DNA from: a virus
Lineage: Duplodnaviria > Caudoviricetes
Virus record (IMG/VR): IMGVR_UViG_3300019874_000016
Span: 1 to 37,899 of that record
Reading direction: 5' to 3' (one strand)
DNA: 37,899 nt
Position 1 is the first letter of the stretch. Each line of letters starts with the position of its first letter. The position numbers were made by a program, and so were the translations under genes. Of this stretch, positions 8,921 to 35,446 are shown in pieces. The notes under the pieces were generated by a model, which was given only the letters and a program-made list of their open reading frames with translations, was not told the DNA's origin and did not search any database.

Positions 8921-9688
8921 ATGTCTGATCTCTTTTTAGGTCAAACCTGCACAGAGTGCTATAAGTTCGTGTCAGCTGGTACAGCTCATACATTCACATT
9001 CAACTTTCAGCCTGATAAAGTTGTATTTAACAACCTATCTGATTGGACTGGAACCGCTTCCGGTAAGCCAATATCTGTTTGGTTCCGTGGTCAAACTACT
9101 GCTGCACATGCATACCAAGAGCAAGTAATTGACTCTTCGGCAGGCGCATCATTCAACTTCTTGGATACAGCTACAAACGGTTTTACCGTTGCAGATCTTC
9201 CAGGTGGTTGCCCAGAGTTTAGAGCCAACATCACTGCGGTAACTAAGGCTTTGCCTTGTGTTATTACAACTGGTGCAGCTCATAACTTCCAAACAGACCA
9301 AATCGTAAGGATCACAGACCTTGGCGATCAAATGCCTACACCAAGAGGCATGAGCCAAATTGATGGAAACAGATACGCTATCGTTGTGTTATCTGCGACT
9401 ACATTCAGCTTGAAAGATGTGATCACTGATGATCCTATTGATTCAACTGGATATGAAACATATGTAACAGGTGGACGTTGTGATATTGAGACTAGAGTAA
9501 TTAGTCTTAATAATCCACAAGTTTACCCTTATAATGTAACTCCATATGTACCAAACCAATTTAAATATAACCCAGTTACTTACCAACTATTGGCAGGAAC
9601 TAGCGTTATGGGTTCGGATGGAGATGTATTTCTCATTGAAGTCTACAAGTTTGGCGAGGTCACAGACCTTGGCGACTTAGTAGTTTAG
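8921..9688 (+). CDS. Virion structural protein with E1-FCCH-like beta domain
   Basis: ITAVTKALPCVITT..AHNF..DQIVRI...GMSQIDG...LSATTFSL...DSTGYETYVTGG. Confidence 0.7.
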   Translation: MSDLFLGQTCTECYKFVSAGTAHTFTFNFQPDKVVFNNLSDWTGTASGKPISVWFRGQTTAAHAYQEQVIDSSAGASFNFLDTATNGFTVADLPGGCPEFRANITAVTKALPCVITTGAAHNFQTDQIVRITDLGDQMPTPRGMSQIDGNRYAIVVLSATTFSLKDVITDDPIDSTGYETYVTGGRCDIETRVISLNNPQVYPYNVTPYVPNQFKYNPVTYQLLAGTSVMGSDGDVFLIEVYKFGEVTDLGDLVV

Positions 9689-11586: not shown

Positions 11587-12198
11587 ATGGTTTGGAATGC
11601 AGTCTGGCCAGATGGAACAAAGTCAGTAAAAACTAATACGCCTACGGGTCAGGCTAACACTACTTATATCAAGACTACGCAGAATGTTAATCATTTCTGG
11701 GATAGAGGAGCTAACTTTGATGGATGCCACAATAGAGTGGACATGCCCAAGCAAGTTGGTAATCTAACGCCCCTAAATGCTAGCATGGATGGGGTTACAT
11801 ACTACAAGCAAGTATCAGCTTCTATACCAAGAGTTGAGACTTTCTATTGCAATTCTAATGGCGTTTATCAAGTTACTCCATCGTTTAAAACGGGAGATAT
11901 AGTAAGCATTTCTGACTCTTCATATACTAATATTACTACTGTAGATAACAATAGTTATGGATATATATACATGTTTGGAGATACTGCCAATGAAGATATG
12001 TCATTTGGATTCTTCAAATGCATACAAAACGTTGTACAATGTTATAGCTCTCTTACTAGATTTGATAATTCCAATGATGCAAAGACTAATCTTGTTTTTG
12101 GGAATGGAAGTAATGCGAGCGGCGCTAATATAAGAGCTAGAAGATCAGCTGGGCCTAATATATCATATCAATACCGCATAGTATATTGGGGTAAATAA
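11587..12198 (+). CDS. Putative tail structural protein
   Basis: Beta-rich, located in the tail module. Confidence 0.55.
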   Translation: MVWNAVWPDGTKSVKTNTPTGQANTTYIKTTQNVNHFWDRGANFDGCHNRVDMPKQVGNLTPLNASMDGVTYYKQVSASIPRVETFYCNSNGVYQVTPSFKTGDIVSISDSSYTNITTVDNNSYGYIYMFGDTANEDMSFGFFKCIQNVVQCYSSLTRFDNSNDAKTNLVFGNGSNASGANIRARRSAGPNISYQYRIVYWGK

Positions 12199-14051
12199 TG
12201 GATATCTATGAGATAGCAGGATATGCAACAGGCGTTTCTAAGGAAGGAGTTAACTTCCTAGAACCTAAGGATGCGTTCGCTGTTCTATTGAATGGATATA
12301 TTTATCGTCAACAACTGCAATCTAGACAGGGATTTAAGCATTTTGGAAATAGATTGTTAGATGGCAGTAGAGTTATGGGAATATTTGAACATACTCTTCC
12401 TAATGATACTAAAGACCTGTTAGTTATAACTAAAGAGTATCTTTATAAATACAATGACATTACTAATGTATTTGATCAAGTTCCTTTTACAAGTTCAGAT
12501 CCTATCACTAGTTTCCTTATACCTTCTAACGATGATTACGTTTCTGGTACTTCATATCCTGAGCCTGACGGTTCGCAAAGGTTTGTATTTACTGGTAAGG
12601 GGATGTCGGACATCTACTTCTACGATGGATCGGGAGTAAAAAGGTTCACTAACGCTACAGACAACACAGATTATCAAGCGCCAGCAGCAGGTACTTTGAC
12701 TAGGGCTACATACGTAGCATGGTTCGGAGAGCGGCTTAACTTCTTTGTTCCAGTAATAGCAGGTCAACAGCAATCACAGATGGTTCTTTACTCTGGTATT
12801 AGAAATATCGCAGGCAATGGAGACAAGTTTAATGTTCCTGGTTCAGGAGATCTATCAGCAGATACCTACGAGTACATGACAGGAGCCGTTATAGCAGGCG
12901 ATTATATGCTGCTGAACTTTAATAGATCATCTTGGACACTTGAAAAGACTAGGGATGCTTTTAACCCTTACTTTATACGCAGAATACCATCAGTTTTAGG
13001 CACAGATGCTCAATTTAGCGCTGTTACATGGAACAATCAGACTCAATCCATTGGCAAGACAGGAATATTAAACTCTGATGGCAAGCAATCTCTTAGAAGC
13101 GACAACAAGATTCCTAACTTTACGGCTGATGATATCGATCAGGCAGAATTTAATCTTACGTATGGTGGATTTGATAGGGTAAATTCTCAATTCCTATTCG
13201 CTTATCTAGGAGCTTTATCTAATTCATCTGTACTCACACAAGATCAAGTGCTCGTCAATAATTACGAAGAAGGGACATGGTCTATATACGATCAAAGATT
13301 CTCCGTATTTGGACAAACTGACAAAGGTATTGATTTAGCTTGGGATGATATTGATGAAACACAAGATCCTTCGTGGGGTCAAATGGATACCACAGAAGAG
13401 ATATGGAATAAGATTGGCATAAGTGCGACTGTACAAAAAACTCTTGCAGGAGATAATTACGGTTTTGTTTACGAATTAAATGCAGATTATGATGATTATT
13501 TTGTAGAGATAACTAACATAACTAATGCTTCATCCGCTGTTATAACGGTTGCCGAGTCAGCTTTTGCAGTAGGGGATATAGTTTCTTTTGATAGTGTAGA
13601 GGGAATGACACAGATCAACGGCCTAAAAGCCACTATCCTTGCAGCTACACTTACAAGCATTACCGTTAATCTAGATACCACGTTATTTGACGCATATACT
13701 ATGGGTGGTACTTTATCTAAGGTTATCAGCTTCTATGCAGAGACTGTGCCTTTTAATCCCTACAGAAGCCAAGGATATCGATGCTATGTATCGCATGTAG
13801 AGTTCTTGATAGATACTAACGGTGGAAATCTAATGATAGATATCTATGAGGATGAGGAAGAGGCTCCATTCAAGGCAAATGTGCTATTGCAGCCTGTAGG
13901 TACAAATAAGGCTCGGGAATGGATCACATGCATAGTGAATCAAGAGGCTAACTTCCTGACGTTTGCAATGAGTCAGCAGAATCCCTCTACTCAAGTTATA
14001 GTAACAAGCATACGAATCCATTGTGAAGTGGGAGGCTTAACTAGCTCATAA
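12198..14051 (+). CDS. Tail tubular protein B / DNA-stabilisation (nozzle) protein with inserted FCCH-like domain
   Basis: 617 aa, beta-propeller-like, in the podovirus nozzle position; FCCH-like segment ITNITNASSAVIT...GMTQING...DTTLFDAYTMGG. Confidence 0.65.
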   Translation: MDIYEIAGYATGVSKEGVNFLEPKDAFAVLLNGYIYRQQLQSRQGFKHFGNRLLDGSRVMGIFEHTLPNDTKDLLVITKEYLYKYNDITNVFDQVPFTSSDPITSFLIPSNDDYVSGTSYPEPDGSQRFVFTGKGMSDIYFYDGSGVKRFTNATDNTDYQAPAAGTLTRATYVAWFGERLNFFVPVIAGQQQSQMVLYSGIRNIAGNGDKFNVPGSGDLSADTYEYMTGAVIAGDYMLLNFNRSSWTLEKTRDAFNPYFIRRIPSVLGTDAQFSAVTWNNQTQSIGKTGILNSDGKQSLRSDNKIPNFTADDIDQAEFNLTYGGFDRVNSQFLFAYLGALSNSSVLTQDQVLVNNYEEGTWSIYDQRFSVFGQTDKGIDLAWDDIDETQDPSWGQMDTTEEIWNKIGISATVQKTLAGDNYGFVYELNADYDDYFVEITNITNASSAVITVAESAFAVGDIVSFDSVEGMTQINGLKATILAATLTSITVNLDTTLFDAYTMGGTLSKVISFYAETVPFNPYRSQGYRCYVSHVEFLIDTNGGNLMIDIYEDEEEAPFKANVLLQPVGTNKAREWITCIVNQEANFLTFAMSQQNPSTQVIVTSIRIHCEVGGLTSS

Positions 14052-18120: not shown

Positions 18121-18154
18121 AATTCTCCTATTTTTCCATTCTATTTTATAAAAA

Positions 18155-18227
18155 CTAGGGAAGCAGGGCTCGAACCTGCGACAGCCAAATTAACAGTTTG
18201 GAGCTCTACCAACTGAGCTATTCCCTA
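18155..18227 (-). tRNA. tRNA-Asn (GTT)
   Basis: TAGGGAA TA GCTC AGTTGGTA GAGC T CCAAA CTGTTAA TTTGG CTGTC GCAGG TTCGAGC CCTGC TTCCCTA G forms a full cloverleaf with U1-A72 and G73; CCA not encoded. Confidence 0.95.
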
Positions 18228-18601
18228 AAAACGATACAATCTTCAAACATACTTAAAGTTAAGGCTCTTTTCGTCATAACTCTATCAGTGCTTATAAGAT
18301 AGCAGTGACGAGGAGTATCAATATATATAAAATCACAGTTTCTTGGATCGAAGGCCAAATTTATAGATTTTCCTTTCCAGTTTCCGCCTGCTCTTCTTAT
18401 ATTTGCTACGTAAGATCCACTAGGAGCCTTACATGAAGTACAGATCACCTTTACTCTGTATATATTGAAATCTCTTTCCACTACCAAATCATAAAAATAA
18501 GAATTCCTAATCGGAGTGCATATGTTATCAAAAAGTCCAGATAAAATATGTATAGCTCTACAAACCACTATGTAGTTTCTGTCTATGTAGTTTTCTTTCA
18601 T
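18218..18601 (-). CDS. PD-(D/E)XK endonuclease-like protein (I-Ssp6803I / group I intron-associated type), catalytic motif atypical
   Basis: YDLVVE....YRVKV.CT and CDFIYI.....YLI pattern; KVI replaces the usual QVK. Confidence 0.55.
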   Translation of the reverse strand: MKENYIDRNYIVVCRAIHILSGLFDNICTPIRNSYFYDLVVERDFNIYRVKVICTSCKAPSGSYVANIRRAGGNWKGKSINLAFDPRNCDFIYIDTPRHCYLISTDRVMTKRALTLSMFEDCIVFRE

Positions 18602-33835: not shown

Positions 33836-35113
33836 TTAGGGGCTTTTTAATCCCATTAACTCTTCAAACGCTTCCCTTGTTTGTTGAACATGTACGGAAT
33901 TACCCAAGCACTTAGCTCTGTCCATCCTAAAGGGAACGACATCATCCATTCTAAGAAGCCTGGGTTGGTCTTTAGGCCACGGCTGTTGTTTTTTATATTC
34001 AGAATGCAATTTAAACTTGGACTGTTCCTTCGTCTCTCCGATGGACAATCGGGAGCTTCTCGAGCTGTCAAGGTGGGCAAGACAAAACCATCGCTCTCTA
34101 TTTTGGGGTGATCCAACCTCTTTACAGCTCTTAGTAATCCAACGGCAGCTGTACCCGATGGAGGTAAGCGAGTTAATGACTTCAACTCCTCCATTTGACA
34201 GGATTCCTTTTGTATTTTCGAGGAAAATCCATCTCGGCTTGATTTCTTTGGCCAAGCGTATGATCTCGAAAAATAAGCCGCTTCGCTCTCCCTCCAAGCC
34301 CTTTCCGCTTCCTGCAACGCTAATGTCCTGACATGGTCATTTTCCTCACGGAAACCCAGCGGTAATGATGTCAATTTTGGCATCATAACTGGGTCTCGTG
34401 GGGTCTCCGATTGCAATAGGTTTGTGATGTTTGTGCCATTCGAAATGACATTTTTGACAGAGCCATCTAACTTCAAGTGGCTTATTATAGTCGTCGTGGT
34501 GTCCTTGGATTGCGGTTCTTCCATCTTTAAATCGTTCTGTAGATTGACATTCTGAACATATTTCAGGGTTAATAATCCTTCCATAACGGACTTCATTTTC
34601 AAATGTTTTGGAGGCTCGTTCATCAGCTCTTTTACCTCCTCTGTAAAAATGATTTTCTTCTCCAAATCTTAGATTTGTTCGAGTTATTGGTGGAGTATAT
34701 TTGATATTTTTTTTCTTTAATTCAAGTCGATCTCTCAATTCAATTCTGCGTCGTAATAAATCCCATATAGATTGTCTTGTCACGCCAAAAACATGACCTA
34801 AATCAGCCAAAGACATTCCAGATTCATATCCTTGAATAGCTTGTTCAACCTGTTCTTCTGTCATTTTTTTAAGTTTACCTGCCATAGAATCCTCCTCTAT
34901 TTTTAGAGAGAATATCATTTCCAGGCACTCCTTGTCAAGACTTGTAATGTCAGGCCAAATAGGAGCTTCTTCTAAAGATCCATCTTGCATTCTGGACAAA
35001 AGCACGCCTTGGCAGTATGGGTCAAGCTCACAATAAATTGATGTCCGCACCCATTCTTCAAGAGCCTTGTCGATTCCTCCGATTCCAGAAAAGAGCGAAA
35101 GTCCATTTAACAT
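33836..35113 (-). CDS. C5 cytosine DNA methyltransferase alpha chain, with an in-frame HNH insert and two in-frame TGA inside motif IV (recoded gene or pseudogene)
   Basis: Motif I LSLFSGIGG, II CELD, III DIT, IV AGFP**PCQDIS, VI FLENT, VIII QNRERWF and X KCLGNSV are all in one frame. Confidence 0.85.
33856..34386 (-). CDS. Methyltransferase beta chain in an overlapping frame (motif IX), M.EcoHK31I-like
   Basis: An open alternative frame carries LPTLTA and NPGFLEWMMSFPLGWT; start uncertain (frame open from 34665). Confidence 0.65.
   Translation of the reverse strand: MMPKLTSLPLGFREENDHVRTLALQEAERAWRESEAAYFSRSYAWPKKSSRDGFSSKIQKESCQMEELKSLTRLPPSGTAAVGLLRAVKRLDHPKIESDGFVLPTLTAREAPDCPSERRRNSPSLNCILNIKNNSRGLKTNPGFLEWMMSFPLGWTELSAWVIPYMFNKQGKRLKS
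34346..34885 (-). CDS. HTH + HNH/zinc-finger endonuclease nested in the methyltransferase, with its own RBS
   Basis: SD GAGGAGG before ATG 34885; GMSLADLGHVFGVTRQSIW HTH; CSEC...GHHDDYNKPLEVRWLCQKCHFEWH. Confidence 0.75.
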   Translation of the reverse strand: MAGKLKKMTEEQVEQAIQGYESGMSLADLGHVFGVTRQSIWDLLRRRIELRDRLELKKKNIKYTPPITRTNLRFGEENHFYRGGKRADERASKTFENEVRYGRIINPEICSECQSTERFKDGRTAIQGHHDDYNKPLEVRWLCQKCHFEWHKHHKPIAIGDPTRPSYDAKIDIITAGFP

Positions 35114-35203
35114 TTATCCTCTTTTTTATTGCCTTAAATCACTTAATTTCCTAAGTTTATATACCTATAGGTATTTCTACCCCATGGCGTTGCTGTGGGT
35201 GTT

Positions 35204-35446
35204 TTAATCATCTTCTGTAATCATAGATTGCCCATTCCATATATACTTCTTCATTTTCTCTTTGGGGCATTTGTGGATATAAAATTCATAGGGTTTTTTT
35301 CTGCATTCTTCACAAAATAGATATGAATGATCCGGATGCAATTTTTCTATTTTTCCTTTTGAACTCCCACACATACGACAAGAAATATTAAGATGGGAGT
35401 ATTTTTTCTGCACCTTGAGCAACTTATCAATTAATTTAGGTTTCAA
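35204..35446 (-). CDS. Small C4 zinc-finger protein
   Basis: CRMC...CEEC. Confidence 0.55.
   Translation of the reverse strand: MKPKLIDKLLKVQKKYSHLNISCRMCGSSKGKIEKLHPDHSYLFCEECRKKPYEFYIHKCPKEKMKKYIWNGQSMITEDD

Follow-up and report, generated by a model that had tools for sequence, protein, structure and literature searches.

A stop-first coding gap linked to HNH nuclease genes in phage cytosine methylases, and its possible crossing by a minimal prolyl-tRNA hop

How might a phage obtain a working cytosine methylase from a gene in which a stop codon parts the proline of the active site from the catalytic cysteine? The question is raised by the window, by which we mean the whole 37.9-kb stretch of viral DNA analyzed here, a complete-looking temperate phage contig in which profile searches identified a portal, a major head protein, a terminase-region gene, and an integrase. 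Two proteins of its virion region (8921-9688 and 12198-14051) matched the E1_FCCH Pfam model (E values of 3e-5 and 1e-8). An earlier note, made from the sequence alone, had described on the minus strand the codons GFP-stop-GK-stop-PCQD, that is, a catalytic motif split by a 15-nt insert, and the sequence at 34325-34357 is exactly as given there, with the gap at 34334-34348. Both in-frame stops are TGA, the Cys codon follows at 34331-34333, and the list of open reading frames (ORFs) holds no start codon in the alpha frame between the stops and the Cys.

All parts of the locus lie on the minus strand. The upstream ORF (34346-35113) begins with a C5-methyltransferase N-half, motifs I to III in the C5-methyltransferase numbering used here (residues 1 to 76, 34886-35113), which matched PHROG 363 and 116 at residues 1 to 62 and whose predicted fold had C5-methyltransferases as best matches over about 70 columns. 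An HTH and a zinc-binding HNH-type endonuclease are inserted in frame between motifs III and IV, in the frame that ends in GFP-stop (34346-34885; phrog_2340 endonuclease, E value = 1.7e-21; phrog_8446 HNH, E value = 1.3e-8; weak HTH matches), and an internal Shine-Dalgarno (SD) sequence with an ATG (Met77, 34883-34897) is available to the nuclease. The motif IV strand then runs up to Gly-Phe-Pro (34349-34378), where CCG at 34349-34351 is the putative take-off codon, and the gap consists of a stop, two codons, a second stop, and the candidate landing triplet CCA (34334-34336). The C-half in the alpha frame (33836-34333; PF00145, E value = 2.3e-27) supplies the catalytic Cys-Gln and motifs VI, VIII, and X. 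Motifs I, IV (PC), VI, VIII, and X of PF00145 are therefore all present, with P and C parted by the gap, and judged by these motifs the split gene is a C5 cytosine methyltransferase. The earlier description of the other motifs as intact and in frame (I to III upstream; VI, VIII, and X downstream) was accurate, and the ORF list agrees with it that an overlapping +1 (beta) frame stays open through the insert (33856-34386, with the start at 34386 a guess; phrog_1008, E value = 5e-4; motif-IX-like stretch near 33913-33966). We take the two frames to be comparable to the alpha/beta arrangement of M.EcoHK31I. The predicted fold of the window protein (pTM = 0.45) confirmed only the order of the domains and left the nuclease family unnamed. 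In the window nuclease, the HTH and the catalytic part are separated by about 20 residues more than in most relatives (34640-34720, a low-confidence prediction).

The insert was checked against read data, as the earlier note had proposed. Logan contigs from two runs cross the gap with 0 differences and 0 gaps (X1 record 2, 34021-35360; X2 record 5, 34169-34420), which excludes an assembly slip as its origin; the two runs represent one soil sample, possibly the window's own source, and their support is not independent. A recoded TGA was rejected as well, since TGA ends 5 of the 30 long ORFs of this phage and TGG is used 97 times. A tRNA search of the window found no suppressor tRNA; the only tRNA gene is a tRNA-Asn (18154-18228, minus strand).

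Next, we looked at how the junction is built in relatives. A search with the upstream half returned 838 proteins, and among the best 120 of these an exact GFP ending was present in 113 (the window's own among them) and a GYP ending in 1, which is far beyond chance. Loci fetched through the C-half had an unbroken GFPCQ in 78 of 80 cases; of the other two, one was gapped and one was not scored. We fetched 176 loci with 58 aligned upstream halves as the query (from viral sequences the best 80 of 275 matches, from metagenomes the best 80 of 341, and from genomes all 16) and a further 132 through the DNA pattern alone. Gapped junctions had the general form of GFP codons, a stop, 3 to 12 further bases, and then Cys-Gln. 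Once a methylase C-half had been confirmed and duplicates dropped, the 341 rows comprised 250 distinct junctions, of which 179 were gapped (the window contig, L401, included) and 71 intact, so the insert is not a peculiarity of the window assembly. Across 110 HNH-ascertained alleles the gap measured 6 nt (52 alleles), 7 nt (29), 8 nt (8), 9 nt (12), 10 nt (6), or 12, 14, or 15 nt (1 each). The 15 nt to which the earlier note had drawn attention is thus local to the window, where the gap is the longest seen. The three gap frames were represented 66, 35, and 9 times (66 in frame, 44 out of frame), and a stop came first in 100 of the 110 alleles (TAA, 40; TGA, 39; TAG, 21) and was not initial in 10. 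Because gaps occur in all three frames and with all three stops, the mechanism must be independent of frame and of stop.

Hosts, as named in record titles, included Bacillota, with a 6-nt allele (L487) in a cultured isolate of Muriventricola aceti, and various further groups; they span several phyla. The full cassette was not seen in cultured phages or plasmids among the matches listed. Cyanophage Cr-LKS3 (OM373202.1) was considered as a cultured-phage cassette and rejected, its HNH being out of frame and its methylase a different one. Loose variable-gap scans returned at least 240 loci, nearly all of them chance matches; 4 had a downstream methylase, and of these L120 and L278 were gapped. 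None of the 4 longer homologues was a continuous protein with both the HNH insert and GFPCQ, which is weak evidence. In six longer proteins (P0105, P0070, and P0121-P0124) the HNH region runs on into the beta frame; these six, L345, L449, and L357 have either no stop right after GFP or an upstream frame change, with the N-half and HNH continuing into the beta frame, and several of them retain an open Cys-Gln frame behind a Pro-like triplet. In another subgroup (L337, L353, L375, L450, L458, L463, and L467), the stop does not follow the Pro codon directly but comes after an intervening CAA or CGA sense codon, and an SD with an overlapping ATG is present in the -1 frame. We found no account of this methylase split in the open-access literature, subscription papers being mostly outside the scope of the search. 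The feature is real, widespread, and apparently unpublished.

The gap proved to be closely linked to HNH genes. Every allele with an HNH inserted between motifs III and IV was gapped (109/109), and the insert was present in none of the 71 intact alleles. A free HTH-HNH gene of one of two families lay directly upstream in 27 gapped alleles; 23 had none, and 20 had too little flank. The coupling is not perfect, given these 23 long-flank gapped alleles without HNH and one intact allele (L368) with an HNH upstream. One gapped allele, L506, keeps an insert-type linker without a nuclease and looks like a case of nuclease loss after arrival. The earlier note had proposed a recoding switch between nuclease and methylase; such a switch is unnecessary because the nuclease has its own start (an SD-like signal at 48 of the 53 such starts found among 107 relatives), and the nuclease is also a separate upstream gene or absent in the alleles just counted.

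We also evaluated whether the two halves of the gene share one history. The 80 closest relatives of one gapped C-half yielded 53 distinct junctions, 48 of them intact and HNH free and 5 gapped (4 with HNH). Among N-halves, 32 gapped rows fell on one side of a branch with 100% support and 57 intact rows on the other, the cassette N-half being monophyletic, whereas the C-halves of gapped and intact alleles mixed on the tree (8 changes, at least 4 forced). This comparison is limited because the intact set was sampled around one allele. The N and C trees were discordant, with a crossover at the cassette edge and a patchy distribution among close cassette-free alleles, as in intronless homing cassettes. 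The pattern is what would be expected if nuclease, N-half, and gap were a cassette copied onto resident C-halves. No Rfam intron matched in 15 loci and no Hint splicing domain appeared in Pfam scans of the N-half/HNH proteins; a group I or II intron or an intein was rejected, with no ribozyme core and no Hint domain detected.

The triplet before the Cys was constrained. Its first two bases were CC in 89 of the 179 junctions, C or U only at both places in 74, and included one purine in 16 and two purines in 0, although a tree of 162 rows requires at least 60 changes at these bases and free mid-gap bases were purines in 102 of 140 cases. The triplet is a Pro codon in 89/179, the same codon as the take-off in only 28/179, and otherwise near-cognate; the scarcity of exact matches is evidence against a hop. 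The third bases of take-off and landing covaried (21/20/17/121, P value = 7e-7), this being the strongest pair in the covariation scan, and a tree-aware test agreed (7.1 same versus 0.2 opposite among 15 independent pairs, median P value = 0.016). The tree-aware tests of G with G (median P value = 0.06) and of non-CC landings with a purine third base (median P value = 0.25) were not significant. Origin through duplication of the Pro codon could partly account for the third-base covariation, and transition bias is a partial alternative for the landing pyrimidines, C-to-U being the commonest kind of mutation. Taken as sequence patterns, these features suggest a triplet suited to landing by a GG anticodon. 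At the take-off, CCC was used in 0 of the 110 HNH-ascertained gapped alleles versus 22 of the 71 intact ones, and CCG in 69/110 gapped alleles; CCG is the rarest Pro codon in the window phage (14/336). The Gly codon before Phe was GGA in 2/110 gapped versus 35/71 intact alleles, and the Phe codon was TTC in 103/110 gapped alleles, a bias for which nuclease avoidance or a hop signal is a possible cause.

Stimulators of the kind known from gene 60 were not evident, which counts against a hop. The earlier note had pointed to an SD-like run inside the gap, which does not hold as a family feature (4/179 gaps). It had proposed to test whether flanking Pro codons and SD are conserved while gap length varies; the length does vary (6 to 15 nt), the SD is not conserved, and a Pro codon stands at the landing in 89/179 junctions. 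An internal SD from the Gly-Gly codons was rejected, because intact alleles have one at least as strong. Neither downstream folding nor anti-SD pairing set gapped alleles apart from intact ones, and a take-off stem-loop with a 3' barrier was not supported, no covarying pairs being found across the gap. A hairpin spanning the gap might have accounted for the landing pyrimidines and appeared in single folds, but it was likewise rejected, since 490 of 500 gap shuffles fold as well. An upstream hairpin was slightly more stable in gapped alleles (not tree corrected).

Could the gapped methylase simply be dead? On that account, which we regard as quite unlikely, the gap merely blocks recutting, and its flanks look intact since the cassette keeps homing into working alleles. 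Such an account gains from the C-halves being common to intact alleles (up to 99% identical), from the interleaving of gapped and intact alleles on the tree (25 changes, at least 6 forced), and from dN/dS in same-clade C-halves, which is higher in gapped alleles (0.22 and 0.20) than in intact ones (0.14 and 0.10). Pairwise dN/dS among close gapped alleles was 0.20 in the C-half (7 disjoint pairs; intact, 0.15, 4 pairs) and 0.07 in the N-half (7 pairs; intact, 0.18, 2 pairs). The gapped C-half values of 0.20 to 0.22 answer the earlier concern that the downstream half might evolve neutrally, but C-halves could owe low values to intact donors, and the cassette-borne N-half is for that reason the stronger test. 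There dN/dS was 0.083 (5 pairs) and 0.172 (11 pairs), compared with 0.08 in intact alleles, which is strong purifying selection and argues against a dead gene. A dead gene is also hard to reconcile with the motif IV strand, which follows the HNH and precedes the gap and is no less conserved than its counterpart in intact genes, with the HNH-less gapped alleles, which keep open frames (dN/dS of 0.22 to 0.26, 5 pairs), and with the constraint on the last triplet, which it would not be expected to show. In HNH-to-GxFP loci with enough flank, a Cys-Gln...Glu-Asn frame was open in 88/89 and continuous in 0, a count made without a profile filter; motif counts on loci chosen by the C-half profile are partly circular. 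A C5-methyltransferase N-half without the Cys has no catalytic use. Since this half is still under selection, the two halves are probably joined.

Ways of joining or using the halves other than a hop were also weighed. Removal or skipping of the gap before translation (by RNA processing or polymerase realignment), or a C-half begun at a nonstandard codon with the halves assembling afterward, is in our view unlikely: near-cognate start triplets do occur at the landing (CTG, 18; TTG, 4; ACG, 6 of 179), a GGNGG run lies about 10 nt upstream, and this methylase family already employs overlapping frames, but no in-frame ATG or GTG is found there in the 179 junctions and 89 are CCN. Gap removal is opposed by the absence of an intron family in the 15 loci and by the shuffles that fold as well across the gap, and the tolerance of C-to-U changes would suit a GG anticodon rather than RNA-DNA realignment. 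We consider it highly doubtful that the gap serves the overlapping beta frame, through coding or stop-start coupling, with the N-half kept for a role of its own. The beta frame does read through in-frame gaps, open for at least 10 codons upstream in 35/36, and where a motif-IX beta frame accompanies a +1 gap, its ATG or GTG lies in or over the gap in 7 of 14 cases; yet the landing constraint is unchanged in alleles without a detectable motif-IX beta frame and across all gap frames, and the production of the C-half is left unexplained because beta cannot supply the catalytic Cys. The beta-frame ATG or GTG in, or overlapping the stop of, +1 gaps (L331, L347, L351, L419, L459, L469, L619, and L622) suggests translational coupling of the beta subunit. 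Stop-codon readthrough, whose product would be an active enzyme with a lengthened catalytic loop, is extremely improbable. Most gaps are in frame (66/110), the window's included, as readthrough needs, whereas 44/110 are not, and the stop can be any of the three; moreover, a scan for the six-base junction with the stop exchanged for a sense codon one transition away (CAA, CAG, or CGA) gave 3 matches and 0 methylases, compared with 113 methylases in 117 matches for the stop pattern, and the window, in which the tRNA search found no suppressor, would need two readthroughs.

We therefore prefer, with a probability of roughly 0.7, to read the gap as a conserved stop-first insert that travels with an HNH gene in phage cytosine methylases, disrupts the homing target, and is crossed by a minimal stop-hop of peptidyl-tRNA-Pro. 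This reading takes together the observed position of the gap, its HNH link, the mosaic of cassette N-halves on shared C-halves, the purifying selection, and the last-triplet constraint. The Pro-tRNA hop from CCG to CCA that the earlier note proposed for the window is thus the best-supported reading, although an exact Pro match is not a family-wide rule. By analogy with MobA, the HNH nuclease would nick intact alleles near the GFP/CQ codons, and repair would copy in the HNH, the N-half, and the gap, which would destroy the nuclease target and protect the new allele. With the stop in the A site, peptidyl-tRNA-Pro would release its CCN codon, slide 6 to 15 nt, and re-pair with a CCN triplet or a near-cognate one, C-to-U changes being accommodated by G:U pairs; decoding would restart at the Cys and give an intact Gly-Phe-Pro-Cys-Gln active site. 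Ribosomes that terminate would release an N-half without activity; in insert alleles, a free nuclease translated from its own start would end at this stop as well. For a phage methylase, infrequent hops may suffice. The window allele itself may hop poorly, because its gap is the longest seen and holds two stops.

Several known systems resemble these gaps in part. Manning and Atkins (bioRxiv 2022.08.31.505936; Bonocora 2011 as cited there) treat MobA and the 50-nt gap of gene 60 as a single mobile element, in which the gap prevents nicking and persists once the nuclease is gone. As in T4 gene 60/MobA, a conserved gene for a phage enzyme harbors an HNH cassette, and the cassette brings a version of part of that gene with it; the take-off codon is followed by a stop (here in 100/110 HNH-ascertained gaps), the gap persists after nuclease loss, and more than one endonuclease family is used. 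In contrast, the host gene is a C5-methyltransferase and not a topoisomerase large subunit, the gap is 6 to 15 nt and not 50 nt, it lies inside the catalytic Pro-Cys pair, the take-off is Pro and not Gly, the landing is often merely near-cognate, no mini-SD or stem-loop was detected, and the hosts span several phyla. The methylase gaps would accordingly seem to work like MobA/gene 60 but to lack its host gene, length, mini-SD, and stem-loops.

Synthetic stop-hops, in which 9 nt specify one residue, are low-level reporter constructs (Atkins et al. 2016, PMC5009743); unstimulated stop-hops are called low-level elsewhere too, with mechanistic detail in the accessible text of PMC7026636 and bioRxiv 2024.12.09.627546. 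The commonest methylase form, Pro codon, stop, Pro-like triplet, is like these constructs, but it occurs in natural alleles. In the accessible part of the 2016 review, natural in-frame stop hopping was not known as of that date, and short counterparts had long been presumed (PMC5009743). The Streptomyces phage Hau3 terminase hop and the Magnusiomyces mitochondrial byps are similar in being short inserts thought or shown to be bypassed through tRNA re-pairing; unlike the methylase gaps, they use a rare or unused sense codon and not a stop, the byps are 27 to 55 nt long, and the available passages describe no linked homing nuclease (PMC5009743, bioRxiv 2022.08.31.505936). In ShiLan, too, a phage methylase harbors a homing HNH with neither intron nor intein, but in the available description this HNH is hidden in another frame of actinophage methylases and adds no stop (PMC11855218); the terms PCQ, bypass, and frameshift do not occur in that text. 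A ShiLan-like arrangement is found in Cr-LKS3, where an unannotated HNH ORF lies out of frame (L709 1366-1980) inside an annotated 616-aa DNA methylase; the gene before that methylase is an alpha/beta methylase with one frame only annotated.

What is known of programmed bypassing comes from gene 60 and its relatives, the yeast mitochondrial byps, and the proposed Hau3 case. The methylase family adds 179 natural variants with an all-or-none readout, and because methylation needs an exact Pro-Cys junction, minimal rules for take-off and landing become directly testable. It also represents a second, independent route by which a homing nuclease can enter an active site without splicing, at loci that gene callers misannotate as truncated proteins or pseudogenes. 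It is reasonably likely that hundreds of phage methylase genes, with hosts in several phyla, form a large natural stop-hop family in which Pro and Cys would be joined by a 6- to 15-nt tRNA-Pro hop. Little would be needed for this hop beyond a nascent chain ending in Gly-Phe-Pro, a stop, and a near-cognate triplet, and homing HNH nucleases would have spread it as a scarless form of target destruction.
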